Below, piece after piece: positions 2 through 61,136 of a stretch of DNA of 64,000 bases. The stretch's first letter is position 1. Each line of letters starts with the position of its first letter. Source of the stretch: a bacterium. GTDB taxonomy: Bacteria; Patescibacteriota; Minisyncoccia; Phycocordibacterales; UBA9973. The position numbers and the translations under genes are program-made. The DNA lies in assembly GCA_037130655.1 (NCBI GenBank), contig JBAXSP010000001.1, positions 37,641-101,640 of the forward strand. Direction: 5' to 3'. The notes under the pieces are model-generated. The model searched no databases. It saw nothing but the letters and a program-made list of their open reading frames with translations, and had not been told where the DNA came from.

Positions 2-1303
2 AAAAAATCTACCGAAGAACATCCACTCCTCATCATCGGCACACCGAGTGCGGTTTGTTTCGATAGAAATGACACCGCATATATTGTCATCGAACACGAA
101 CGTTCTCGTGCATACAAAACATTATCATATCCATATATAGACTTGCGACTAGTACTCGAAGCCTATGCGCGCAAAGCTCATATCCCGTGTATCATCGGCG
201 ACTCATTGCTTCGCACCGAAACAATTGCTGAACGTGACAACTACGGACACATCGGACAAACATCACTTCGTCTGCCAGATTTATCAGAAATCAAAATTGA
301 AAGCCTGCGTGATGAAAACGACAAATTCAGTTTGATTTCAAAACCACTCAAAAAAGCACTCGGCCGTGTACAAGAAAATAACGAACATCTTATGTTGTTT
401 GTTCCACGCAAAGGACTGGCACCGATTACGGTCTGTAATGATTGCGGGACCACTGTTCGCTGTACGGGGTGTGATGCACCGCTCGTGCTCTATATGAAAG
501 GCAAAGACAATCGTATCTATAGCTGTAATCGTTGTGGTAATACCGAAGACGCAACAAAATCTTGTACACACTGTACCGGCTGGAATTTGGTCCCACTCGG
601 CATCGGCACAGAAACAGTCAAAGAATTTTTGAGTGATAGTTGCAAAGATGTACCGATTACTATTTTGGACAAAGATCATATCAGTTCAAAAAAAGATGGG
701 CAAAAAATAATAGAAGATTTTTATGCTTCACCATGTGGTATTTTGATTGCGACCGAATATGCGATTCCACTCATGCGTCAACCAATCGACAAAATCGCCA
801 TCGTTACGATGGATACGCTTTTTTCAATTCCACATTTTCGAATGGATGAAAGTATTGTTGGACTCATCATCGCATTGTCAGAACGAGCCAAAGCACCACT
901 TCTTATTCAAACAGACAAAATAGATGCAAAACTATTGTCACACATCAAAAGCGGTAACCTGACTGGTTGGCAAAGAGAAATTGTCGACGAACGAAAAATG
1001 CTAAGCTATCCACCATTCGTACATCTGATTACGATCAGACATCAAGGAAACAAAGTAGATACACAAAAATATAAGACATTGATCGAACGAGAATTTACTG
1101 ATTACAATCCGTACATTCACACCGTAACACTTTCAAAAGTAAAAGAATTGTACGAAACAACCGTCTTGATGAAAATAAAACGCAGTGAATGGCCGTCACT
1201 GACGAATGCAAAAGAAGATTTGCGTGAATTTCCCTTTTACCAAAAAGTCCAAGCCTTTACTCCTGCATACAAAGTAGAAATCAATCCGGATAGCATATTA
1301 TAA
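2..1303 (+). CDS. priA: primosomal protein N' (PriA helicase), 5'-truncated at window edge
   Basis: Frame 2 is open from nt 2 to the stop at 1301-1303. It has the Cys-rich zinc-binding cluster (CNDCGTTVRCTGCDAPL...CNRCGN...CTHC) and the helicase C-terminal region typical of PriA. Confidence 0.85.
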   Translation, partial: KKSTEEHPLLIIGTPSAVCFDRNDTAYIVIEHERSRAYKTLSYPYIDLRLVLEAYARKAHIPCIIGDSLLRTETIAERDNYGHIGQTSLRLPDLSEIKIESLRDENDKFSLISKPLKKALGRVQENNEHLMLFVPRKGLAPITVCNDCGTTVRCTGCDAPLVLYMKGKDNRIYSCNRCGNTEDATKSCTHCTGWNLVPLGIGTETVKEFLSDSCKDVPITILDKDHISSKKDGQKIIEDFYASPCGILIATEYAIPLMRQPIDKIAIVTMDTLFSIPHFRMDESIVGLIIALSERAKAPLLIQTDKIDAKLLSHIKSGNLTGWQREIVDERKMLSYPPFVHLITIRHQGNKVDTQKYKTLIEREFTDYNPYIHTVTLSKVKELYETTVLMKIKRSEWPSLTNAKEDLREFPFYQKVQAFTPAYKVEINPDSIL

Positions 1304-1410
1304 TGACCAATTACTAATGACCGATGACCAATATTCGGAAAACACAGTCGGTTTTGCGAAGTAAAACCGACTGTGTTTTATTAGTCATTAGTCACTGGTC
1401 ACTAGTCATT
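1304..1410. repeat. inverted arrays of tandem 7-nt repeats (TGACCAA/TTAGTCA type) flanking the priA terminator hairpin
   Basis: Left arm 1304-1332 (tgaccaa ttactaa tgaccga tgaccaa), right arm 1380-1410 (ttagtca ttagtca ctggtca ctagtca). The arms are imperfect reverse complements of each other. Confidence 0.7.
1339..1379 (+). terminator. rho-independent terminator after priA (17-bp perfect stem AAAACACAGTCGGTTTT / AAAACCGACTGTGTTTT)
   Basis: Perfect inverted repeat with a 7-nt loop and flanking A/T runs, seen directly in the sequence. Confidence 0.7.
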
Positions 1411-1453
1411 ATTTTTATTTGCACAAAATCCCATTTTGTGATATAAAAATCAT

Positions 1454-3519: not shown

Positions 3520-4719
3520 ATGCCTAGACTAAACCCAGACGTAGAATCATTCATCCGAATCAAAGTGATCGGTGTTGGTGGTTCTGGAAAAAACGCATTG
3601 AACCATATGATCAATTCCAAAATCAAAGGAGTTGACTTCATTGCGATGAACACTGATACCCAAGACCTTCACAACTCACTCGCTGAAGCCAAAATTCATA
3701 TCGGGAAAAACTTGACCAAAGGACAAGGTGCCGGAATGAATCCAGATGTTGGACGCCGAGCAGCCGAAGAAACCAAAGCTGAAATTCAAGATGTCATCAA
3801 AGGTGCACATATGGTATTTATCGCTTCTGGTATGGGAGGTGGAACCGGAACAGGCGCAGCACCAATCGTTGCAAAAGCAGCAAAAGAACAGGGCATTCTC
3901 ACTGTGGCTGTTGTCACAAAACCATTTTCATTCGAAGGTAATCAAAGAATGAGACTCGCAGAACAAGGTATTGCAGAACTCGAAAAAGAAGTTGATGCAA
4001 TCATTGTTATTCCAAACGACCGATTGCTTTCAATCGCTTCAAAAGATATGGGATTCAAACAAGCATTTGCTATGTGTGATGAAGTGCTTCGACAAGCAGT
4101 TGAAGGTATTTCTGACCTCATTACAATTCCTGGTCAATTGAACCTCGACTTCGCTGATATCTGTGCAGTCCTTCGTGACGCAGGAACAGCACTCATTGGT
4201 GTTGGTACTGCTGGTGGTGAAGACCGCGCACGCAAAGCCGCACTTGATGCGATCAATTCCCCACTCCTTGATATTTCTATCAACGGTGCACGTGGTGTAT
4301 TGCTTTCTATTGCAGGTGGCGACGATCTAGGAATTCTCGAAATCAATGAGGCAGCCAAAATCGTTACTGAATCTGTCGACAAAGATGCGAAAGTTATCTT
4401 CGGTACAACATTTGATGATCGTTTGAAAAAAGGCGAAATCAAAATCACTGTCATCGCAACTGGTTTTCCAGTAGACACTCCTCGCAAATCTTTGTTTGAA
4501 AGAAATGCAAGTCCTGTGCAACAACAGCAACAACCTGTTCAAAAAGTAGAACAACGTACAGAAAGTACTTTCCCTATCAAAAAAGAAATTCACGAAACAG
4601 CTCCAACAGAAGGACTTCTTCGCAAAGCAGACAATGAAATTCCAACAGAAGAAACTGATGAAATCACTGACGAAGATGACTGGGGAACAATTCCAGCATT
4701 TCTCCGAAGAAAGAAGTAG
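3520..4719 (+). CDS. ftsZ: cell division GTPase FtsZ
   Basis: GVGGSGKNA N-terminal motif and GMGGGTGTGAAP tubulin signature; acidic C-terminal tail. Confidence 0.95.
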   Translation: MPRLNPDVESFIRIKVIGVGGSGKNALNHMINSKIKGVDFIAMNTDTQDLHNSLAEAKIHIGKNLTKGQGAGMNPDVGRRAAEETKAEIQDVIKGAHMVFIASGMGGGTGTGAAPIVAKAAKEQGILTVAVVTKPFSFEGNQRMRLAEQGIAELEKEVDAIIVIPNDRLLSIASKDMGFKQAFAMCDEVLRQAVEGISDLITIPGQLNLDFADICAVLRDAGTALIGVGTAGGEDRARKAALDAINSPLLDISINGARGVLLSIAGGDDLGILEINEAAKIVTESVDKDAKVIFGTTFDDRLKKGEIKITVIATGFPVDTPRKSLFERNASPVQQQQQPVQKVEQRTESTFPIKKEIHETAPTEGLLRKADNEIPTEETDEITDEDDWGTIPAFLRRKK

Positions 4720-4720
4720 A

Positions 4721-4842
4721 AGCTAGCTACTAGCATTTAGCTTCTAGCGACTAGCTAAAACAAAAAGAGCGACAACCGAAGGTTGTCGCTCTTTTTGTTT
4801 CGATACACTAGCAACTAGTCACTAGAAACTAGAACCTAAAAA
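4721..4842. repeat. CTAG-type tandem heptamer arrays flanking the ftsZ terminator
   Basis: Left arm agctagc tactagc atttagc ttctagc gactagc. Right arm acactagcaactagtcactagaaactagaacctaaa, which is nearly identical to 50238-50272. Confidence 0.7.
4757..4800 (+). terminator. terminator after ftsZ (20-bp perfect stem AAACAAAAAGAGCGACAACC / GGTTGTCGCTCTTTTTGTTT)
   Basis: Perfect inverted repeat seen directly. Flanked by heptamer-repeat arms at 4721-4755 and 4806-4842. Confidence 0.75.
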
Positions 4843-4863
4843 TTTCGTGCTATAATTTTTTCT

Positions 4864-5817
4864 ATGCAAACAAACACTACTACAAATACAACTATCTATG
4901 ACTTAGCCATTGTCGGTGGCGGACCTGCTGGTTGTGCAGGTGCAGTATATGCAGCCCGTAAACGGCTCAAAACAGTCTTTCTAACGTCAGAATGGGGCGG
5001 ACAGTCTGTTGTATCCGAAGGTATCGAAAACTGGATAGGAACGCCAGTTATTTCAGGTGCCGACTTGGCCAAAAGTCTCCGTGAACACGTAGAAAAATAC
5101 GATGGCGACTATTTACACATCGTCTCACCTACTTGGGTCAAAACAATTTCAAAAACAGACGGAGGTTTCCAAATTGAACACTCAAAGGGCGAGATTATCA
5201 CTGCCAAAAGTATTTTGATTGCTACTGGTTCAGGGCGTCGCAAACTCGAAGCCAAAGGTGCAGATATATTTGAACACAAAGGACTGACCTATTGCGCAAG
5301 TTGTGACGGGCCACTCTTTGCTGATCAACCAGTTGCGGTCCTCGGCGGAGGAAATGCCGCATTCGAATCCGCAGCTCAGTTGCTCGCCTACTGCTCGCAT
5401 GTATATCTGATCCACCGAAGCAATGACTTCCGTGCTGATCAAATCACGATTGATAAATTGAAGACCAATCCAAAACTCACCATCATCACCAATGCCGATG
5501 TGACTGAAATCACTGGCGACAAATTTGTTGAAGGATTGTCATATCTCGACAAGACGACAAACGAACAAAAAGAACTCACGGTCTCTGGAGTGTTCGTAGA
5601 AATCGGCCAAATTCCAAATACTGATATTGTGAAGGGGTTAGTCGACATCGACAGTCACGGAAAAATCGTCATTGATCCGTGGACTGGCATGTCATCAGTT
5701 GCAGGTATCTGGGGCGCGGGAGATTGTACCAACATCCGCTATCACCAAAACAACATTGCCACAGGTGAAGCGGTCAAAGCTTTAGAAGATATCTATCAGT
5801 GGTTGCATAAGCAGTAA
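4864..5817 (+). CDS. trxB: thioredoxin-disulfide reductase
   Basis: FAD-binding GGGPAG, redox-active CASCDG and NADPH-binding GGGNAAFE motifs; 317 aa. Confidence 0.85.
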   Translation: MQTNTTTNTTIYDLAIVGGGPAGCAGAVYAARKRLKTVFLTSEWGGQSVVSEGIENWIGTPVISGADLAKSLREHVEKYDGDYLHIVSPTWVKTISKTDGGFQIEHSKGEIITAKSILIATGSGRRKLEAKGADIFEHKGLTYCASCDGPLFADQPVAVLGGGNAAFESAAQLLAYCSHVYLIHRSNDFRADQITIDKLKTNPKLTIITNADVTEITGDKFVEGLSYLDKTTNEQKELTVSGVFVEIGQIPNTDIVKGLVDIDSHGKIVIDPWTGMSSVAGIWGAGDCTNIRYHQNNIATGEAVKALEDIYQWLHKQ

Positions 5818-10928: not shown

Positions 10929-11605
10929 CAATCTCCATGACCTGGTGCTATAAGAGTACCTGATCCAGTAGAATACTTTTTAGGTACTTTAGCGAGTAAA
11001 AACGGAGCGAGTCGAACTTCAAGAGATTCCTGAAATCCTTCCTTGCTATACACATTATTTTCTATGTGAATATTAGCAAGTTTAATTGTTTCAGCTAAGT
11101 TCAATAGCCAAGGTTCTGGTGCACATTCTTTGTAATCAAGATCAATAAACTGCTCAAGTGTTTTGATATTGTCAGTAAGAGTTCCTCTTTTCTTTGCCCA
11201 TTCAAAACGATGTTCTGCCTGTGCTGTTACTGAAATCAATAAACCATTTTGATTACTGATATATCTTGCTTCATCAACACGGCGAACAGAATCAATAATC
11301 AAAATTTCCCTTTTTTCAACATATGCTCTTGAGTGAAAATTTTTACAATAGACATCACCACCAAAACGTTCGGTGTATTCATTTGAAAATTTACTCAAAG
11401 CAGGTCTGTCGAGCAAATCTATTTGTCTTTGCTCTTTCTCAGCGACATGTTTTGCAATCGCGAGAATCTCTTCTCTTGTATTGATGTATTGAATACTGTA
11501 ATTAGAAAAACGACGTTGAATATATTTACTTAATGCACTTTTTCCTGCACAATTTTCACCGGTAATACCGATAATAAAAACAGTTGTTTCCATGTATATA
11601 TACAT
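10925..11605 (-). CDS. P-loop nucleotide/nucleoside kinase-like protein (dephospho-CoA-kinase-like fold)
   Basis: Walker A GITGENCAGKS close to the N-terminus when started at the internal Met (MYIYMETTVFIIG). The longer ORF-track N-terminus is unlikely. Confidence 0.45.
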   Translation of the reverse strand: MYIYMETTVFIIGITGENCAGKSALSKYIQRRFSNYSIQYINTREEILAIAKHVAEKEQRQIDLLDRPALSKFSNEYTERFGGDVYCKNFHSRAYVEKREILIIDSVRRVDEARYISNQNGLLISVTAQAEHRFEWAKKRGTLTDNIKTLEQFIDLDYKECAPEPWLLNLAETIKLANIHIENNVYSKEGFQESLEVRLAPFLLAKVPKKYSTGSGTLIAPGHGDC

Positions 11606-17677: not shown

Positions 17678-17709
17678 TTTAGTCATTAGTAATTGGTCAT
17701 TAGTCATTA
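17678..17709. repeat. tandem heptamer array (tttagtc attagta attggtc attagtc att)
   Basis: Same TAGTCAT repeat family as at 1380-1410, directly abutting the stop of 17714..18100. Confidence 0.65.
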
Positions 17710-17713
17710 TTTT

Positions 17714-18100
17714 CTATTTTTTCTTTCCAAAAACCTTTTTGAGAAAACCGACAAACGCATTATCTTTTTCAGTCACCGGTGTAGGCAATGGTTCATCAAC
17801 AATCATAATCACTTTCTCACCCTCTTTTGCTACTGGATAATGCTCACGGATCACTGTCTCAACACCTCTATCTGTATTCAAATCTCCTAATGTTTTTCGG
17901 AGTTCAATTTCGTGTTTTTGCAAATCGGCATATTCAGCCTCAGATGCACGTTTATTGGAAATAGCCAGTGACATCTTACCCAACACATCAATCACTGAGA
18001 GTAATAAAAGAATTGTAATAACGATACAAAAAACAAGCACTGGTGTCTTCAAAAAAAAGGATTGTACTGGCTTTTTGTGTTGTTGCATTCTTTCATCCAT
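17714..18100 (-). CDS. septum formation initiator family protein (FtsB/DivIC-like)
   Basis: Single N-terminal TM, a coiled-coil segment and the C-terminal IREHYPVAKEGEKVI motif typical of FtsB/DivIC. Confidence 0.6.
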   Translation of the reverse strand: MDERMQQHKKPVQSFFLKTPVLVFCIVITILLLLSVIDVLGKMSLAISNKRASEAEYADLQKHEIELRKTLGDLNTDRGVETVIREHYPVAKEGEKVIMIVDEPLPTPVTEKDNAFVGFLKKVFGKKK

Positions 18101-18270
18101 AGATGTATATTATATCGTATATGTTTTGGAATCCTAAGCACAAAAAGAGAATTGCACTGATTTGGAAGATTATCTGCCTTTTGGTGGTAATCAGTATGAT
18201 TATGTTGTACATTCCGTCATTACTTAGATAGTCAGTATTTTAGATTATAGAGTATAGACAATTCAAGATA

Positions 18271-18300
18271 CAGGACGACCTTCGGTCGTCCTGTATTTTT
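18271..18300 (+). terminator. orphan plus-strand-oriented terminator (CAGGACGACCTTCGGTCGTCCTG + T7)
   Basis: Hairpin with a UUCG loop followed by a T-run on the plus strand only. No plus-strand gene lies upstream. Confidence 0.45.
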
Positions 18301-18337
18301 TATATTCTGAAATACTATACTCTTATATACTTTTTCC

Positions 18338-28080: not shown

Positions 28081-28686
28081 ATGCAAAAACCAATGGAGTA
28101 CAACACAAAAAGTGGACAACGAATTGAAGTTCTTGCAATTCGTGCGACACGTTGGATTGGCTCTGTTTCTTCTATCGTATTTCACACAATTATCTTCATT
28201 CTTTGTTTCGTATTAATTCTCCTTGGCGCACCGACAGACAAAGTATTACTGACACTGACGACCATTGTCTCACTTGAAGCGATTTACCTCTCAATCTTTA
28301 TTCAAATGTCAGTCAATCGTTCAAACAGACGGTTGGTCGCTGTTCGTAAAGACTTGGAAGACATTCAAGAAGGAGTGGAAGAAATCGGGGAAGACATCGA
28401 ACACATTGAAGAAGATATTGGAGAAATCCAAAAAGACGTCGAAGAAATTCAAGGTGAAGTCGGAGAAATTAGTGATGACATTGAAGACATTCAGGAAGAC
28501 GTCAAAGAACTCGGCGAAGAAGTCGAAGACATCGGAGAAGAAATGGATGAAGATGACGAAGAAGGCAAGGCTCGCGATGCGATGATTATGGCAAAAATGG
28601 AAGTGAAGCTCGAAGAGTTACTCCAAGAAATTGCTGTCCTCAAAGAACAAACTGCAAAGAAAAAACCAACAAAGAAATCTGAATAA
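28081..28686 (+). CDS. DUF1003-like membrane protein with an acidic tandem-repeat domain
   Basis: N-terminal RIEVLAIRATRWIGSVSSIVFHTIIFILCFVLILL resembles the DUF1003 core. It is followed by degenerate ~9-10-aa acidic repeats (EDIQEGVEEIGEDIEHIEEDIGEIQKDVEEIQGEVGEISDDIEDIQEDVKELGEEVEDIGEE). Confidence 0.55.
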   Translation: MQKPMEYNTKSGQRIEVLAIRATRWIGSVSSIVFHTIIFILCFVLILLGAPTDKVLLTLTTIVSLEAIYLSIFIQMSVNRSNRRLVAVRKDLEDIQEGVEEIGEDIEHIEEDIGEIQKDVEEIQGEVGEISDDIEDIQEDVKELGEEVEDIGEEMDEDDEEGKARDAMIMAKMEVKLEELLQEIAVLKEQTAKKKPTKKSE

Positions 28687-32732: not shown

Positions 32733-33503
32733 TTATTTTTTTAATTCAACACACATAAACATCGGAAATTCCTTACGAGCAACGTCTTCTGCAGATTTCC
32801 GTGGACCAATTCCACTTTCTTTGTGAGAAATCCATTCTTCAAGACCGACAACTGAAAGTCCGGTCTTTTTGAATAATTTGAAATACCATTGCAGTGGTCG
32901 GTGATACGACGTTGTGGTAATTTTCTTAGCTGTTTTTTGTCCAGGATGAGCATCAATCGCGTACGCAACCTCTTTCATATACAAATCAGTTCTTCGGTAT
33001 TGCACTTTTTTTGCTTCGTCATATCCCCAGTCACTATCTTTTGGAATACGGAAACATGGATGCATCAGTACGATATGCAAACTACCACCATCTATCAATA
33101 CACGTTTTGCTTCAGTGAGCACACCGAGCACGTTATCCATATTTTCAAGTGCAAGTACGATTACCGCTTTATCTTGTGATAAATCTGTCACACCCGACAT
33201 TTTGTCAGCACTGTGAATCAAATACTTGATATCTGTAGACTTTTCTTTTGCAGTAGCAATGAGCGATTTTGAACTATCAATACCAACAACTTGTGCGCCA
33301 CTGAGTGCAAACAATCGACTAAAATATCCTTGCCCACAAGCAATATCAACAATTCTATCTCCTTTCTTGGGACTCAAAAGGCGAATCAAGTTCGGAGCAA
33401 TAACTTTTGCTTGCAAAGTGTCTTCACTTTTTTCTAGATAATCATCGTACCAAGTAGAAACCTTTTCCCATGAAGTATCTTTTTTGTAATTTTTATTAGT
33501 CAT
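32733..33503 (-). CDS. class I SAM-dependent methyltransferase
   Basis: Motif I VDIACGQGYFS, and post-I acidic residue motif VVGIDSS. Confidence 0.75.
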   Translation of the reverse strand: MTNKNYKKDTSWEKVSTWYDDYLEKSEDTLQAKVIAPNLIRLLSPKKGDRIVDIACGQGYFSRLFALSGAQVVGIDSSKSLIATAKEKSTDIKYLIHSADKMSGVTDLSQDKAVIVLALENMDNVLGVLTEAKRVLIDGGSLHIVLMHPCFRIPKDSDWGYDEAKKVQYRRTDLYMKEVAYAIDAHPGQKTAKKITTTSYHRPLQWYFKLFKKTGLSVVGLEEWISHKESGIGPRKSAEDVARKEFPMFMCVELKK

Positions 33504-33530
33504 TGGTCATTAGTAATTAGTCATTACTTA
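33496..33530. repeat. tandem heptamer array (cattggt cattagt aattagt cattact)
   Basis: TAGTCAT family. Spans the methyltransferase start codon and the ndh stop codon. Confidence 0.6.
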
Positions 33531-34750
33531 TTATATTCTTTCAAATTATTTTCCTTTCGATACTTGCGTCCATCTAACCAAAGCCCTATAACCTTACCAA
33601 ATGGCATCCAGCCAGCAAAAAACTTCAAATCGATAACATGTCTCATAAAATATGCAAAACGTCCGTACAGCTTAAATTTGCCCATAGAAAAGACCGCCCA
33701 ATTATCTCCGATTGGAATCGCATATCCAACAGACTGTGCCTTGTATTCTTTGTATGACTTATTGCGAAGTGAATTATTGATCACAGTTGCAACATATGTA
33801 CCATCAAACATCGCTGTTTGTGCGAGTCCTGTGTATTGTGTCTGAGCACAGTCACCAACAATAAAGATTTCTCGGTGCGCCGGCACCCGAAGATATTCAT
33901 CAACAACAACTCTTCTTCGTGGAGAAAGTTCGACACCCGACATACTACTTGCCAATGAATTTATTTTTGTCCCCGCAGTCCAAATGACTGTCTTTGCTTT
34001 CATTGACATATCTCTAAGATAGACTTGCTCAACATCTTCTTTCATCAAGGTACGATTCAAGAAAATATTCACCCCCATACTTTGTAATTTCTTCAATACT
34101 TTTGCAGAAACATCAGCTGGTAATGATGGTAATACTTTTCCGGCCCCTTCAATCAAATCAACGGTCACCAGTGACGGGTCAACTTTCATTTTTCGAGCAA
34201 TACGCTTCATGAATGACACAATGTCACCTGCAATTTCAACTCCTGACGGACCAGCACCAACAATAACGACATGGTAATGCGACACACGTTCTTCTTCACT
34301 TGGATGCATATGTTCTTCAAACAATCCATAAATATGATTTTTGATTCGAAGTGCATCATTGGTTGATTTGAAAGAAAACGCCAACTCAGACACACCAGGA
34401 ATATCAAAATAGTTTGCTTCACTGCCGAGTGCAAAAACCAAATTGTCATAGTGATACACAATACCGTCTTGCCCGTGAACCTCTTTGTTTTCTGGAACGA
34501 TTTTTGTCACCACATCTTTCATTATTTTTACCCGCTCTGGAAGGACATCTTCAAGGGGTACACAAACCTCAATCGGAGAAGCGCAAGTCACCACACGATA
34601 AAGCGCTGGGTAATACTCAAAGTATGATTTATTTGAAATAAGAATAATTTCTGCAAAACTAGGTGCCTTTTTCGCCAGTTCTCGAGCACAAGAAATACCA
34701 GCGAATCCCCCACCAATAATGACAATTTTATGTTTTTTCTCTGAATTCAT
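33524..34750 (-). CDS. ndh: type II NADH:quinone oxidoreductase (NDH-2) / FAD-dependent pyridine nucleotide-disulfide oxidoreductase
   Basis: KIVIIGGGFAG FAD-binding fold, and a second GAGPSGVE NAD(P)-binding fold. Confidence 0.8.
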   Translation of the reverse strand: MNSEKKHKIVIIGGGFAGISCARELAKKAPSFAEIILISNKSYFEYYPALYRVVTCASPIEVCVPLEDVLPERVKIMKDVVTKIVPENKEVHGQDGIVYHYDNLVFALGSEANYFDIPGVSELAFSFKSTNDALRIKNHIYGLFEEHMHPSEEERVSHYHVVIVGAGPSGVEIAGDIVSFMKRIARKMKVDPSLVTVDLIEGAGKVLPSLPADVSAKVLKKLQSMGVNIFLNRTLMKEDVEQVYLRDMSMKAKTVIWTAGTKINSLASSMSGVELSPRRRVVVDEYLRVPAHREIFIVGDCAQTQYTGLAQTAMFDGTYVATVINNSLRNKSYKEYKAQSVGYAIPIGDNWAVFSMGKFKLYGRFAYFMRHVIDLKFFAGWMPFGKVIGLWLDGRKYRKENNLKEYNK

Positions 34751-56981: not shown

Positions 56982-57031
56982 AGTTTAAAGTCGTTAGTCT
57001 ATTAGTCACTTAGTCGTTAGAATGTGAAAAT

Positions 57032-57388
57032 CTATTTGCTTGTGTTTTTTATTAATACTCTAAGTATCTTAAGGATTTCAGTAAGAAGATTTTCAACATT
57101 TTCATACTTTTCTATATTACCATATTTTAATCTTTTTGCAATAGTAAGATGTGTTTCAATTTCTGCACCTGAAGCGAATGCGATTAATAAAAATCGTTTA
57201 AACTCAACTTCTCCTCCTCTCATCCTACCTTCTGCAATGTTTGCAGAAATAGAAACAGCAGCTCTTCTTGTCTGAGAAATCAATCCATATCTTTCATCTT
57301 CTGGAAAATCTTTGAGGAGCTCATAGACAGCAATAACAAGGTCTATACTTTTTTGCCAAACAATGAGATTCTTATAATTTTCATTCAT
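57032..57388 (-). CDS. four-helix-bundle protein (23S rRNA IVS protein / Avd-like family), paralog 2
   Basis: NLIVWQKSIDLV...RRAAVSISANIAEGRMRGGEVEFKRFLLIAFASGAEIETHL. Flanked by inverted heptamer arms at 56984-57024 and 57399-57432. Confidence 0.8.
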   Translation of the reverse strand: MNENYKNLIVWQKSIDLVIAVYELLKDFPEDERYGLISQTRRAAVSISANIAEGRMRGGEVEFKRFLLIAFASGAEIETHLTIAKRLKYGNIEKYENVENLLTEILKILRVLIKNTSK

Positions 57389-57420
57389 ATGTTTTTCTAT
57401 ATGACTAAGCGACTAACAGA

Positions 57421-58329
57421 CTAATTGACTCCTATAAGTGCCTTAGTTGCTATCTGCATCGCACTTTCTTTTGTTTTGGTCACACATAAAAATCTGCAGT
57501 TGTGACAGAAAACAACATCAGAAACACCTGTCGTTTGTTCGAGTTCTTTTTCTTTCAAACCTGCCCAACTTTCAGGAAACTTTTTACGCGGAGTAAATTC
57601 ATTATTTGAATCCTTAATAGTCTCTACTCGCCACCCTCCTCCTGTACCACTTCTCGGAAGCACCACAAACAACACTTCTGGTTTTTCAAGAAGCACTGAA
57701 TTCAAATCATATCGCGAGACATATTCATCGAGTACCAAGATGCTTTTTTCTGGACTTGATTCAAACACAGACAAAATCATTTGTTTTTTTGTAATAAAAC
57801 TGGTGGCTTTGCGAATTTCACCAGAGAGAATTTCTTGTGCGAGCGAAACTGCATTCATAAATGCTTTATATTTCTCTTTGTCTGTGGCAGTATCCAATGC
57901 TTCAATACTAGAGAGCACATCATTGATTGTGTATGGGAAAATACTTGCTTCTTTGATACAACTCATTCCATTGTCGATTGCATCGATCGGAAAAACGAGT
58001 CGCTGTTCAATCATACTTGCAACCTCTTCGTTTCCATTACACACAGATACTCCGTACTCTTTCCATACCAGACCAAACGATGCATACGGAATCGTATTTG
58101 TTCGAACACCTGCACCGCCAATTTGATGATGATCAAAACGGTTAATAGAAGCATCATACACACCACCGACATCAATTACGAAATCTGCTTTGTCTATTTC
58201 TTTTTGATCACGCGTACGAATGACACGAATAGCACCTTTCAAAAAAAGTGAAAGTGTGGCGCAAGCAAAAACATCATCTGCGTGATAACTACCATTGTGC
58301 ACCGCGATTGTTTTTTTCAGAAACCACAT
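57421..58329 (-). CDS. MYG1/UPF0160-family metal-dependent hydrolase
   Basis: N-terminal HNGSYHADDVFA, and conserved His cluster RFDHHQ; 302 aa. Confidence 0.7.
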   Translation of the reverse strand: MWFLKKTIAVHNGSYHADDVFACATLSLFLKGAIRVIRTRDQKEIDKADFVIDVGGVYDASINRFDHHQIGGAGVRTNTIPYASFGLVWKEYGVSVCNGNEEVASMIEQRLVFPIDAIDNGMSCIKEASIFPYTINDVLSSIEALDTATDKEKYKAFMNAVSLAQEILSGEIRKATSFITKKQMILSVFESSPEKSILVLDEYVSRYDLNSVLLEKPEVLFVVLPRSGTGGGWRVETIKDSNNEFTPRKKFPESWAGLKEKELEQTTGVSDVVFCHNCRFLCVTKTKESAMQIATKALIGVN

Positions 58330-59510: not shown

Positions 59511-59966
59511 TTAAGCATTAAACAAACCGTCTATCACCTCCTTAACGGTACTGCCGTCTGCTTTACCTTTGAGCTCTACCATAACTTCTTTCATCAACAA
59601 TCCTTTTTTAGTTGGATCAATCTCGCCCAGCTTTGTCATAATAGCTTTGACCTGTTGTTCAACTTCTTCTTTACTCATCATTGTTGGTAAAAATACTTCG
59701 AGCACTTTCAATTGTGCTTCTTCTTCAACAACCAAATCCATTCGTCCTCCTTTGGTAAATTGTTCGATGGAATCTTTGCGTTGTTTTGCAAGACGAGTAA
59801 TTACTTTCAAACACTCTTCATCTGATAACTCTTCTTGTGGTTTTCTACCAGTTGCTACAAGTTCATTAGTAAAAGCAGATGACAACCCACGCATTACATC
59901 AAGACGGACTTGATCTTTTGCTTTCATTGCCTCCTTTATGTTGTTTTTTATATCTTCAAAAATCAT
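59511..59966 (-). CDS. yqeY: GatB/YqeY-domain protein
   Basis: YqeY motifs (IKEAMKAKD..RLDVMRGL, KQRKDSIEQF.KGGRMDLV.EE, GKADG..VKEVI); about 150 aa from the internal Met. Confidence 0.75.
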   Translation of the reverse strand: MIFEDIKNNIKEAMKAKDQVRLDVMRGLSSAFTNELVATGRKPQEELSDEECLKVITRLAKQRKDSIEQFTKGGRMDLVVEEEAQLKVLEVFLPTMMSKEEVEQQVKAIMTKLGEIDPTKKGLLMKEVMVELKGKADGSTVKEVIDGLFNA

Positions 59967-60006
59967 ATAGAAAAGTATATCAGAATATAGATAAACAGAG
60001 TATAGA

Positions 60007-60363
60007 CTAGCGATTTCGCTCAATTAATTTATTTAACATTCTCATTATTTCTGATAATTTTTCATATAGTTCGATTTCCTCTTTTTTAGAAACATATTTT
60101 AATCTTTCAGCTATTTTTATTTGAGTATCTAGTTCAGCCAAAGACCCTAGTGACATAGTTAAAAAATGAGCGAAATCTTTTTGAGTATTACGACGACTTC
60201 CTTCAGCAATATTTGAAGGTACTGAAATTACAGCTCTTCGTATTTGAGATGTAAGTGCATAATCTTCATTCTTAGGAAATTTTTTAGTAATCTCGTAAAC
60301 AAATATGACAAAATCCATACTCTTTTGCCAAACAACCAATTTTTCATAATCATGCATCTGCAT
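60007..60363 (-). CDS. four-helix-bundle protein (23S rRNA IVS protein / Avd-like family), paralog 3
   Basis: KLVVWQKSMDFV...RRAVISVPSNIAEGSRRNTQKDFAHFLTMSLGSLAELDTQI. Flanked by TATAC-type inverted arms at 59975-60011 and 60381-60412. Confidence 0.8.
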   Translation of the reverse strand: MQMHDYEKLVVWQKSMDFVIFVYEITKKFPKNEDYALTSQIRRAVISVPSNIAEGSRRNTQKDFAHFLTMSLGSLAELDTQIKIAERLKYVSKKEEIELYEKLSEIMRMLNKLIERNR

Positions 60364-60422
60364 ATATACATATTGTATCCTCTATATTCTAAAATACTAT
60401 ACTCTGATATACTTTGTTTTAT

Positions 60423-61136
60423 ATGAATCTTATCTTTTTGGACACCGAAACAACCGGCATCGGACCCGATGATTATCTCTGCCAATTGGCATATAAGCAT
60501 AATGACGAAGTTTTTTGCGAACTCTACAATCCTGGCAAGAAAATTCCTCCAGAAGCAAGTGCGGTGACACACATTTCAAATAAAATGATCGAGGGAAAAC
60601 CCTCTTTTCGAGAAAGTGCCGACTATCAAAGAATAAAAAGTTTGCTTGAAAATCCTGAGAATATTTTTGTTGCTCACAATGCAAAATTTGATCTGATGAT
60701 GATCAACAAAGAAGATATCATTCCCGCAAATGTGATCTGTACATTGCGTGTTGCTCGATATCTTGATCCGGAACACAAAATTCCACAGCACAAATTGCAA
60801 TTCTTGCGATATTATTTGGAAATTGAAATCGAAGCACAAGCCCACGACGCACTCGGTGACGTACTAGTACTCGAACAACTTTTCCCTCGTTTGTATAAAA
60901 AAATCGCCGAAGAAGTTGGCGAAGAAAAAGCGTTGGAAAAAATGATTGAGGTCTCATCGCGACCATCAATGATGTATTCATTCTCTTTTGGTAAGCATCT
61001 TGGCAGAACAGTAGCTGAAGTTGCACAGATTGATCGTGGTTATTTGGAATGGCTGCTCGCTTCAAAAGAAAAAGATGCACCAGACGATGAAGACTGGATT
61101 TACACCCTGCGTCACCATTTAGGAAAATTAGTATAA
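60423..61136 (+). CDS. DnaQ-like 3'-5' exonuclease (DEDDh) with C-terminal DUF3820/ExoX-C-like domain
   Basis: Exo I FLDTETTG, Exo II HNAKFDL and Exo III HDALGD motifs. C-terminal FSFGKHLGRTVAEVAQIDRGYLEWL. Confidence 0.8.
   Translation: MNLIFLDTETTGIGPDDYLCQLAYKHNDEVFCELYNPGKKIPPEASAVTHISNKMIEGKPSFRESADYQRIKSLLENPENIFVAHNAKFDLMMINKEDIIPANVICTLRVARYLDPEHKIPQHKLQFLRYYLEIEIEAQAHDALGDVLVLEQLFPRLYKKIAEEVGEEKALEKMIEVSSRPSMMYSFSFGKHLGRTVAEVAQIDRGYLEWLLASKEKDAPDDEDWIYTLRHHLGKLV

Follow-up and report, generated by a model that had tools for sequence, protein, structure and literature searches.

Tandem heptamer arrays between genes

The 64-kb stretch of DNA analysed here, referred to as the window, belongs to a bacterium of the CPR (Paceibacteria/Nomurabacteria) and carries eight intergenic loci built of tandem units with a period of seven nucleotides. 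Three are pairs of arrays around genes for four-helix-bundle (4HB) proteins of the S23p family (cassettes 1 to 3), three are pairs around terminator-like hairpins without an ORF (L1 to L3), and two are solo arrays, as follows (minus strand stated where a strand applies).

1301-1333: left arm of L1; family A, (TAATGAC/CAATTAC)n; first unit formed by the priA stop codon TAA at 1301-1303
1339-1379: central perfect hairpin of L1; 17-bp stem (1339-1355/1363-1379), 7-nt loop, A4 and T4 at the stem ends
1380-1411: right arm of L1; family A, (ATTAGTC)n; pairs with 1301-1333
4717-4757: left arm of L2; family B, (NNNCTAG)x6; the first TAG is the ftsZ stop codon
4758-4800: central perfect hairpin of L2; 20-bp stem (4758-4777/4781-4800), 3-nt loop, terminator-like
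4806-4842: right arm of L2; family B; ACTAGTCACTAGAAACTAG..AACCTAAA in common with the arm at 50241-50275
17679-17711: solo array; family A; 3 nt downstream of the stop codon of a DivIC-like gene (17714-18100, minus strand)
18235-18263: left arm of L3; family D (TATAG type)
18265-18299: central hairpin of L3; ~16 bp, then a T-run; terminator-like in the terminator scan
18296-18333: right arm of L3; family D; lepA stop codon 5 nt away
33495-33530: solo array; family A; fills the 20-nt spacer between an ndh-like gene (33524-34750, minus strand) and a methyltransferase gene (32733-33503, minus strand)
49822-49855, minus strand: downstream arm of cassette 1 (in gene orientation); family B; ends 10 nt before the start of an M50 peptidase (rseP-like) gene
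49861-50226, minus strand: 4HB gene 1; 121 aa; TIGR02436 E=1.3e-32
50241-50275, minus strand: upstream arm of cassette 1; GGTTTAG GTTCTAG TAGCTAG TTTCTAG TGACTAG on the gene strand; includes the frr stop codon (50269-50271)
56984-57022, minus strand: downstream arm of cassette 2; family C (TTAGTCG/N, period 7-8); 3 nt separate its end from the obg start codon
57032-57388, minus strand: 4HB gene 2; 118 aa; TIGR02436 E=9e-34
57399-57432, minus strand: upstream arm of cassette 2; family C (period 7-8); includes the MYG1 stop codon (57421-57423)
59972-60005, minus strand: downstream arm of cassette 3; family D; adjoins the probable yqeY start at ~59968
60007-60363, minus strand: 4HB gene 3; 118 aa; TIGR02436 E=2e-40
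60375-60412, minus strand: upstream arm of cassette 3; family D; adjoins a divergent RNase T-like exonuclease gene (60414-61136, plus strand)

Self-similarity of the arrays at lag 7 stands far above that at the other lags among 4-12, and the pattern TAG(N4)TAG(N4)TAG occurs 19 times in the window against 0.17 expected from shuffles. The degenerate heptamer arrays that an earlier note on this DNA had described are thus all present, far above chance, as intergenic tandem repeats with at least three copies of a 7-nt unit at eight loci in 64 kb. Although coding sequence makes up 85.5% of the window, none of the arrays falls within it. At five loci the stop codon of the upstream gene is itself an array unit, and the proposed overlap with gene ends is borne out for priA (TAA), ftsZ (TAG), frr (TAG), MYG1 and ndh, whose stop codons all lie within arrays; the solo array at 33495-33530 also takes in the longest-ORF start of the methyltransferase. 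The right arm of L2 is followed 3' by TGCTATAAT and then by the trxB ATG at 4864. At the gathering threshold, the sole Rfam matches in the window were five tRNAs, with no rRNA.

The long perfect hairpins reported between arms were found, with stems of 17 bp (L1), 20 bp (L2) and ~16 bp (L3). These central hairpins have the GC-containing stem and T-run of intrinsic terminators. That of L3 was called by the terminator scan, and the stems of L1 and L2, which are absent from the scan list, end in A4/T4 and T5, as do the other terminators of the window. Judged by its sequence, the L1 hairpin looks like a bidirectional intrinsic terminator.

Arm families and pairing

The arrays fall into four sequence families, with units ATTAGTC (A), NNNCTAG (B), TTAGTCG (C) and TATAGAG (D), and both arms of a pair belong to the same family in inverted orientation, as had been claimed for arms around a hairpin or a gene. 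Paired arms are 74-91% complementary and are predicted to anneal, with duplex energies of -17 to -43 kcal/mol (z-scores -3 to -9), and a cross-matrix of arm duplexes showed that pairing is specific to the family. In these predicted duplexes, terminal inverted repeats form a long stem around the cargo; where the cargo is a terminator stem, the arms extend it, giving a whole-element MFE of -37 to -63 kcal/mol (z -7 to -13). The arm types of L1 are arranged opposite to those of every other paired element.

Cassettes and ORF-less elements have families in common, namely B in L2 and cassette 1, and D in L3 and cassette 3, the right arm of L3 being 94% identical to the arm at 60383-60415 over 33 nt. 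It is only through such shared arm families that the five loci without an ORF count as S23p/4HB derivatives.

Unit-by-unit register is weak: in-register unit identity is 5.85 of 7 compared to 5.67 for permuted unit order (p=0.008), with no single cassette significant, indicating that it is mainly the unit type that is conserved. Recognition by a protein, or concerted homogenisation, accounts for conservation of unit type no less well than selection for a precise stem does. With so weak a signal from unit-order permutation, we make no claim of precise hairpin complementarity or compensatory covariation.

As regards the strand of action, G.U versus C.A mismatches give a mixed picture, in which the antisense strand (relative to the flanking genes) folds better by 7-9 kcal/mol in L1 and L2, and cassettes lean slightly to the coding strand, whose RNA is the better-pairing of the two in 39 of 61 cassettes (p=0.03). 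GC skew may contribute to strand differences in arm folding.

4HB genes and heptamer arms beyond the window

Each of the three cassettes holds an ORF of PF05635/TIGR02436 between its arms, from a family described as 'functionally uncharacterized' (10.1101/2024.02.27.582315). The product of 4HB gene 1 is homologous to PDB 2GSC (E=7e-18), and the deposits of the homologues 2GSC and 2RLD contain five chains each. A PADLOC defence-system search with the 4HB proteins gave nothing meaningful.

The association of 4HB genes with heptamer arms is general. At 80 unrelated metagenomic 4HB loci, with GC contents of 29-68%, a heptamer array lies upstream of the gene and its reverse complement downstream. 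Lag 7 scored best in 52 of the 77 upstream flanks and 41 of the 74 downstream ones, with lag 8 best in a further 15 and 13, respectively; the mean best match at lag 7 was 17.2 of 28 upstream and 15.7 downstream, compared to ~11-12 at other lags. Under a stricter score, the number of flanks with a period-7 array was 26 of 77 upstream and 19 of 74 downstream; among control windows it was 12 of 630. The metagenomic arrays have a median of 4.6 units (mode 4-5), the upstream array ending 13 nt before the ATG and the downstream arm beginning 6 nt past the stop codon. Tandem heptamers directly upstream of the ORF are found in the three window cassettes and 78 others, and AG is the top phased dinucleotide in 4HB upstream arms (35 of 78 loci), TAG and CAG being dominant.

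Heptamer arms also accompany 4HB genes on viral contigs and on plasmids of Nostoc punctiforme, Nostoc PCC 7120 and Riemerella; plasmid-borne 4HB genes are mostly from Nostocales. In Xanthomonas campestris, a 4HB gene between accB and accC has (GGGAATC)n upstream and (CCCATTC)n downstream, and these arms are the genome's own dispersed GGGAATC repeat, which has been reported from ~186 sites in each Xanthomonas genome, with convergent pairs at 70-75 of these (PMC4692102). Heptamer repeats and the S23p family are found together in one fixed arrangement, with a heptamer arm on one side of the 4HB gene and an inverted heptamer arm on the other, in Patescibacteria, Cyanobacteriota, Bacteroidota, Xanthomonas, high-GC metagenomic lineages and viral contigs. 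Elements of the intervening-sequence (IVS) type are present in housekeeping operons (frr-rseP, MYG1-obg, accB-accC) as well as in rRNA genes. In the prior literature, we found the heptamer-4HB link only for a single Coxiella 23S-rRNA IVS.

Orthologous sites in relatives

The window's own FtsZ has a single record, a 3.4-kb Logan contig. The ftsZ-trxB spacer of related Paceibacteria shows the same kind of architecture in 5 clear cases among 68 delimitable spacers (~14 at most by eye), built from other heptamers than those of the window. With like architecture also around 4HB genes in many phyla, the description of the arrays as genome-specific does not hold; what the earlier note saw as a dispersed, palindromic, REP-like class is nevertheless real, lies flush with gene ends and is tied to 4HB genes. 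The suggestion that the arrays mark where 4HB cassettes insert is likewise unsupported, as they form the cassettes' own arms; they may be either earlier targets or scars of such insertion.

In most relatives, the frr-rseP junction is free of arrays, with the stop and start codons a few nucleotides apart; one relative (L052) carries an array and a 4HB gene there, and another (L040) carries a solo array that almost matches part of the window's arm. Identity between L052 and the window is 82% for the 4HB protein (that of cassette 1), compared to 69% for FtsZ and 65% for Frr. 4HB genes are patchy in their frequency, with 3 in the 64-kb window and 1 in 1.2 Mb of relatives. In several relatives, a terminator and a promoter are located between the arms, so that a single transcript would contain both arms only on read-through.

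Proposed explanation as IVS-like palindromic cassettes

We see about an even chance that the heptamer arrays are the arms of IVS-like palindromic cassettes of the S23p/4HB type that lie outside rRNA, together with ORF-less derivatives of these. The anatomy itself is shown: each arm consists of ~4-6 tandem 7-nt (occasionally 8-nt) units with a YAG(T) core in common, its partner is the reverse complement, and between them lies a 4HB (TIGR02436/PF05635) gene or, as the other kind of cargo, an intrinsic-terminator-like hairpin. The elements sit inside or between operons, flush with the upstream stop codon and the downstream start codon or promoter. Once transcribed, the arms would anneal into an imperfect duplex of 30-45 bp enclosing the cargo. 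On the model of the Coxiella 23S IVS, the arms probably form RNase III-type stems and the duplex is most likely a processing site, where a cut would part the neighbouring cistrons and free the cargo RNA. We further infer that the pentameric 4HB protein probably binds the arrays, as a likely trans-acting reader of its own heptamer family; Avd, a family relative, is a pentameric barrel that binds DGR RNA (10.1101/2023.10.23.563531), and the X. campestris S23p structure is a homopentamer, as cited in PMC4990558. Stop codons in several frames would be a by-product of the UAG core in an AT-rich genome, closing frames here and not forming a general selected property.

Among the closest known systems is the IVS of Coxiella burnetii, which combines 3-4 GACAGAT heptamers upstream of S23p with a 28-bp terminal stem and is cleaved by RNase III at the first repeat (Warrier et al. 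2016, PMC4990558). Like it, the window cassettes hold an S23p/4HB ORF within terminal inverted repeats forming a long stem, have tandem heptamers immediately 5' of the ORF start and lack a good Shine-Dalgarno sequence. Unlike it, they lie between protein-coding genes and not in 23S rRNA helix 25 or 45, have heptamer arrays as both arms, and are accompanied by ORF-less versions with terminator hairpins; RNase III cleavage would here follow by analogy.

Counting against the cassette reading are the better antisense folding of L1 and L2, the reversed arm types of L1, the weak register and the need for read-through in relatives, as well as the doubt of the Coxiella authors that S23p is translated in Coxiella (PMC4990558). 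A signature-motif scan for an RNase III gene gave no match, which is uninformative, as the sequence scanned is a small part of any genome.

Alternative readings of the arrays

Heptamer repeats, among them cyanobacterial STRRs, GGGAATC of Xanthomonas and TAACTGA of Beggiatoaceae, have been catalogued for decades without a mechanism. Tentatively, and as a conjecture that may well prove wrong, we suggest that S23p/4HB pentamers are sequence-specific readers of heptamer arrays, much as TRAP or HutP read their sites, each subunit taking about one 7-nt unit and each paralogue having a heptamer code of its own. Dispersed arrays (STRR, GGGAATC, TAACTGA-like and those of the window) would then be the cis sites of a widespread, hitherto unrecognised system, post-transcriptional or at the DNA level, with its sites on either side of terminators and gene boundaries. 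If true, such a model would explain what bacterial heptamer repeats, a puzzle since 1990, and the S23p/IVS family are for. The 4HB-heptamer hypothesis can now be tested in culturable organisms.

The elements could instead be a selfish system of the REPIN/RAYT kind, with the 4HB cassette as master, the ORF-less elements and solo arrays as non-autonomous progeny, and the arrays as terminal repeats for DNA mobilisation by the 4HB protein beside a host enzyme, with no host function; we consider this unlikely. As in REP/REPIN systems with RAYT, the elements are dispersed intergenic palindromes, their families are particular to a genome or paralogue, and inverted copies of the repeat flank one associated gene while also occurring ORF-less elsewhere, which is the defining layout of RAYT-REPIN systems (Bertels & Rainey 2011, PMC3116915). 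The patchiness of the 4HB genes and the mostly empty frr-rseP junction point the same way, and the high identity of the L052 4HB protein fits horizontal transfer or homing. The repeat here is, however, a tandem array and not a single hairpin, and the protein is a four-helix bundle without an HUH/Y1 motif, from a family not known to act as a nuclease or recombinase. Among the window proteins scanned (~25 of ~70 ORFs), there was no Y1_Tnp match and no transposase beside the elements, and no target-site duplications or direct repeats were visible by eye outside the arms of the three cassettes. The 4HB proteins of the window, at 42-43% mutual identity, are old paralogues rather than recent copies, and Xanthomonas arrays are positionally conserved across species, in unusually stable regions (PMC4692102).

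A riboregulatory role resembling that of HutP or TRAP, which we regard as decidedly unlikely, would have a ring-shaped 4HB pentamer bind single-stranded (NNNNYAG)n, one unit per subunit, and control formation of the terminator or long stem, resulting in antitermination, attenuation or autoregulation. The likeness is to the sites in the Bacillus subtilis hut terminator, where HutP, a symmetric oligomer specific for A and G, reads NAG triplets with 4-nt spacers (period 7), at least three per cluster, in two clusters on either side of a GC-rich terminator stem (Gopinath et al. 2008, PMC2425495). An arrangement of this kind, with UAG at period 7 on both sides of the terminator hairpin in the same RNA, is present by sequence in L2 (4717-4842); L1 and L3 have UAG in only one arm per strand. 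The phased AG of 4HB upstream arms, the modal 4-5 units per array, which match a pentamer, and the better conservation of unit type than of pairing register are in line with such binding. Arrays nevertheless have anything from 3 to more than 12 units, and the 3' arm is mostly the complement (CUR), leaving no second YAG array on that RNA. No HutP homologue was identified (~25 of ~70 window ORFs scanned), and we claim no sequence or fold kinship of 4HB with HutP or TRAP; the likeness concerns a possible mode of working and not membership.

The earlier note had proposed that the period of 7 rotates stop codons through the frames of both strands, and that the arrays plausibly serve as combined insulators of transcription and translation. 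Six-frame closure was found in 6 of the 14 window arms, comprising all those of CTAG and TTAGTCG type, compared to 0.6% of the other intergenic 34-mers of the window, and the claim fails for the other eight arms, including the hand-checked array 1380-1411, in which only two of the three plus-strand frames are closed; taken whole, L1 (1301-1411) and L2 (4717-4842) are closed in all six. Sense-strand stops are always present in the arm adjoining the upstream gene, which, with the array units that double as stop codons, speaks for insulation. In 4HB cassettes elsewhere, however, six-frame closure is seen in just 7 of the 45 upstream arms and 5 of the 41 downstream ones, the GC-rich arms GGGAATC, CAGCGTA and GGGTGTT contain no stop codon at all, a repeat with period 4 (CTAG or TTAA) could close every frame in less sequence, and the majority of the window's terminators have no arrays. 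Stop usage in arms (TAG 18, TAA 3, TGA 1) is not what pure stop selection predicts and indicates that the conserved feature is the YAG(T) core, not stop codons as such. Selection for stop codons is set aside as a general rationale in view of these counts and of the stop-free arms, and selected insulation is, in our judgement, very improbable for the arrays as a class.

Neutral simple-sequence repeats arising by polymerase slippage and tolerated only between genes have next to no chance of being the explanation, as the slippage view, despite heptanucleotides being the commonest long SSR class in many bacteria, with slippage as proposed origin (Mrazek 2007, as cited in PMC4679880), and despite copy-number differences among Coxiella strains (PMC4990558), is already contradicted by arm pairing and the 4HB association, and leaves unexplained the inverted same-family pairs, the fixed placement around 4HB genes in many phyla and the conserved YAG core.

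Relation to other dispersed heptamer repeats

A G-quadruplex reading of the window arrays is ruled out, as the units ATTAGTC, NNNCTAG, TTAGTCG and TATAGAG contain no tract of at least three Gs. Tandem heptanucleotides of the STRR type were reportedly described in cyanobacteria by Mazel and colleagues in 1990, and the ATTGGTC units in family A of the window are a rotation of STRR2 (TTGGTCA). Like STRR and the TAACTGA repeats of Beggiatoaceae, Cyanobacteria and Bacteroidetes (MacGregor 2015, PMC4679880), the window arrays are dispersed intergenic tandem heptanucleotides, frequently directly 5' of start codons without a Shine-Dalgarno sequence. They differ in that their host belongs to a CPR phylum, and the descriptions of those repeats did not emphasise pairing of inverted arrays, terminator hairpins or an associated protein family.

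The GGGAATC repeats of Xanthomonas and the GGGGA(C/T)T repeats of Anabaena (Rehm et al. 2015, PMC4692102) are likewise intergenic tandem heptamers, often in close convergent pairs, but they are G-rich and have been read as G-quadruplex formers, whereas the window units are AT-rich with a TAG core. That report does not mention S23p or 4HB; the flanking of a Xanthomonas 4HB gene by GGGAATC is shown here.

Heptamer arrays flank 4HB genes and terminator-like hairpins

Inspection of the sequence confirmed the tandem heptamer arrays at the positions where the earlier note had placed them. In self-similarity scans, 53 windows reached at least 16/21 matches at lag 7 versus 0–20 at lags 4–12, Tandem Repeats Finder returned period-7 arrays of 4.4–5.1 copies at each locus, and TAG-N4-TAG-N4-TAG occurred 19 times in the window against 0.17 expected from dinucleotide shuffles. 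All arrays were intergenic, with none inside genes, on a crude gene map that counts 85.5% of the window as coding, in keeping with the intergenic placement proposed before. They form four sequence families (A–D), and at all paired loci the two arms are inverted and belong to one family. Three pairs enclose small minus-strand genes of TIGR02436, 'four helix bundle protein' (4HB; E = 1e-32 to 2e-40), and three ORF-less pairs (L1–L3) enclose terminator-like hairpins with perfect stems.

Array loci of the window
1301–1411: ORF-less pair L1, after priA; family A (ATTAGTC/ATTGGTC); hairpin 1339–1355/1363–1379, 17 bp, perfect
4717–4842: ORF-less pair L2, after ftsZ; family B (NNNCTAG); hairpin 4758–4777/4781–4800, 20 bp, perfect
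18235–18333: ORF-less pair L3, after lepA; family D (TATAG type); hairpin 18265–18299, about 16 bp, perfect
49861–50226 (−): 4HB gene of cassette 1, between frr and M50 peptidase; family B
57032–57388 (−): 4HB gene of cassette 2, between MYG1 and obg; family C (TTAGTCG/N)
60007–60363 (−): 4HB gene of cassette 3, adjoining yqeY; family D
Two solo arrays: after the stops of a DivIC-like and an ndh-like gene; family A

It is well supported that these arrays form the arms of S23p/4HB cassettes and of derivatives without an ORF. Two ORF-less elements share near-identical stretches with cassette arms, one of 19–20 nt (100% identity) and one of 33 nt (94%); the copies are therefore dispersed rather than independent products of slippage. 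The 4HB proteins show weak similarity to DGR Avd, and they have homologues in the PDB, 2GSC (XCC0516 of X. campestris) and 2RLD, both with five chains in the deposition.

Arms lie flush with ORF boundaries, as had been claimed, and at five loci the upstream stop codon is itself an array unit. The proposal that the arrays close all six frames held for 6 of 14 arms (CTAG-type and TTAGTCG-type) but not for the others, and in the array originally checked by hand (1380–1411) two of three plus-strand frames are closed, not all. The enrichment is large, since six-frame closure is found in just 0.6% of the remaining intergenic 34-mers; among upstream arms of metagenomic 4HB loci, only 7/45 show it. 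Selection for stop-codon insulation explains a genuine feature of these loci but does not hold up as the general reason for the arrays.

Family A has no 4HB gene within the window, and its three post-gene arrays (3/3) have a sense strand of (TAATGAC)n units, starting at or within 4 nt of the gene's stop codon. The arm types of L1 are reversed relative to L2, L3 and the three cassettes, with the ACNA/CTA-type arm 5' and the TAG-type arm 3'. The longest yqeY ORF (59511–60023) overlaps the 3' end of the third 4HB gene by 17 nt; translation of yqeY probably begins at an ATG near 59968, immediately beyond the downstream arm.

Heptamer arms surround 4HB genes across phyla

Scanning metagenome contigs with a 4HB alignment yielded 80 diverse loci (GC 29–68%). 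Lag 7 was the best period in 52/77 upstream and 41/74 downstream flanks, and lag 8 in another 15/77 and 13/74; the mean best match at lag 7 was 17.2/28 upstream and 15.7/28 downstream, with other lags at about 11–12. On a stricter score, period-7 arrays were present in 26/77 upstream and 19/74 downstream flanks versus 12/630 control windows drawn from these loci. Read along the coding strand, upstream arms are rich in G and T, and downstream arms are complementary to them. The median array length is 4.6 units; upstream arrays stop 13 nt short of the ATG, and downstream ones begin 6 nt past the stop. The phased core is AG in 35/78 loci; counted by arms, the triplets are TAG (18), CAG (8), TAA (3) and TGA (1). 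Within the 143 kb surrounding these genes lay 34 further period-7 arrays, 12 of which belong to the family of the local cassette. Three 4HB-bearing contigs (L099, L127, L139) carry many different array families inside 5 kb, with as many as eight arrays in L139, which suggests genomes with multiple coexisting array and 4HB families.

The pattern also occurs in viral contigs, and 4HB arms read (GGAGTCA)n in Nostoc punctiforme, (CCTCTGC)n in Nostoc PCC 7120 and (GGTTTAA)n/(CCTTGAA)n in Riemerella. The X. campestris 4HB gene, between accB and accC, has (GGGAATC)n upstream and (CCCATTC)n downstream, and in that locus a convergent GGGAATC pair accompanied by a small hairpin is found between groES and groEL. 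Rehm et al. reported GGGAATC at about 186 sites per Xanthomonas genome, 70–75 as convergent pairs, with function unknown and without mention of S23p (PMC4692102).

Arrays at ftsZ–trxB and frr–rseP in related species

In 1.2 Mb around ftsZ from 80 related species, period-7 arrays were about sixfold rarer than in the window and just one 4HB gene was found. Comparison at the orthologous ftsZ–trxB site, as the earlier note had suggested, showed arrays at both edges in a minority of relatives: five clear cases, drawn from the seven of 68 delimitable spacers that meet a strict criterion, or as many as about 14 when judged by eye. Most instead have a stop, a hairpin, (TGn)TATAAT and then ATG. Where present, the heptamers vary by species yet agree between arms (GGTTCTAG/CTAGAACC, TTAGTCT/AGACTAA, AAGTAGN/CTACTTT).

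At the frr–rseP junction, the site of cassette 1, stop and start codons lie a few nucleotides apart in most relatives. One relative (L052) carries a family-B array together with a 69-aa ORF and a 4HB gene that shares 82% identity with cassette 1, and another (L040) a solo array almost identical to part of a window arm. The 69-aa ORF, membrane-protein-like by eye, sits between arm and 4HB gene (66–275, reverse-complemented frr–4HB region), so cassette cargo can exceed the 4HB gene alone.

The junction is also an insertion hot spot in L003, L009, L021, L026, L029, L043 and L051. Inserts comprise a GNAT-like ORF (identified by scan in L026), similar candidate ORFs (L043, L051), an F420-ligase-like ORF (L009), ORFs of 151 aa (L003) and 498 aa (L021), and an ORF that weakly matches Y1_Tnp (IS200/RAYT-like; L029; E = 0.002) and has palindromes GGTCCTAAGC(A/T)TTGCTTAGGA on both sides.

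At trxB, the (TGn)TATAAT box ends 6–9 nt before the ATG in the window (4847–4866) and most relatives (L002–L081), with no Shine–Dalgarno sequence, suggesting that these Paceibacteria commonly use leaderless mRNAs. In many relatives the ftsZ–trxB spacer contains a structured, conserved element about 95 nt long (..AAAGGGGCTTTGGAGCTCGACGGAGCGAGAACCGAGCAAATTTTTAG..CCCTTTGA..; L017, about 11185–11290; L012, L019, L021, L022, L028, L032, L034, L057, L058, L061, L064, L071), and four carry it in reverse orientation at other sites (L016, L030, L035, L060). The L017 copy matched no Rfam family at E ≤ 0.01; the element may be an undescribed small RNA or mobile palindrome.

Possible function of the arms

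The only published heptamer–S23p link found in the searchable literature is the Coxiella 23S rRNA intervening sequence (IVS), which has 3–4 GACAGAT heptamers upstream of S23p and a 28-bp terminal stem cut by RNase III at the first of these repeats; its authors also cite the S23p structure of X. campestris, a homopentameric toroid (PMC4990558). By analogy, we favour an IVS-like mechanism and infer that, once transcribed, the two arms would pair as a long, imperfect duplex to be processed by RNase III, and that the pentameric 4HB protein probably reads the heptamer family of its own cassette. A broader and more novel hypothesis, with 4HB proteins as sequence-specific readers of heptamer arrays in general, we consider less likely than not. 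Avd, a pentameric barrel resembling S23 proteins, contacts DGR RNA (10.1101/2023.10.23.563531).

Folding of whole elements gives −37 to −63 kcal/mol (z −7 to −13), the arms prolonging the terminator stem; arm–arm duplexes reach −17 to −43 kcal/mol, with family-specific pairing in a cross-matrix. Across cassettes, the coding strand has a slight advantage in pairing (39 vs 22, p = 0.03). Against a simple stem stand the weak unit-by-unit register between cassette arms (5.85 vs 5.67 of 7; overall p = 0.008, with significance in no individual cassette), better folding of the antisense strand in L1 and L2, the reversed L1 arms, and the terminator and promoter between the arms in several relatives.

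Less likely rivals to the IVS-like reading are a selfish system like REPIN/RAYT, selected stop-codon insulation, neutral slippage, and riboregulation like that of HutP, a protein that recognises XAG triplets with 4-nt spacers in two sites either side of a terminator stem (PMC2425495).

Tandem heptamers, convergent heptamer pairs and Coxiella IVS heptamers were each known separately. TAACTGA repeats were reported without mechanism (PMC4679880), as were Nostoc heptamers, whose binding partner was 'yet to be identified', and 23S_rRNA_IVP ORFs inside rRNA insertions of CPR bacteria were termed functionally uncharacterised (10.1101/2024.02.27.582315). New, as far as the searchable literature goes, are their union in one architecture linked to the 4HB family across phyla, its presence within protein-coding operons of a CPR genome, and the ORF-less versions surrounding terminators.

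Genomic context of the window

FtsZ relatives of the window are all Candidatus Nomurabacteria/Paceibacteria MAGs (≤72% identity), so the host is a CPR bacterium; by the same comparison its species is not among GTDB representatives. Cumulative GC skew drops almost monotonically over 1–64000, the plus strand being C-rich; the priA–ftsZ–trxB block is on the plus strand, and from 17 kb on most genes are on the minus strand. An ORF at 28081–28686 (+) contains a 42-nt-period tandem repeat (28349–28553; 4.4 copies, 21-nt sub-repeats; Tandem Repeats Finder), whose consensus, read by eye in the ORF frame, abounds in acidic codons.
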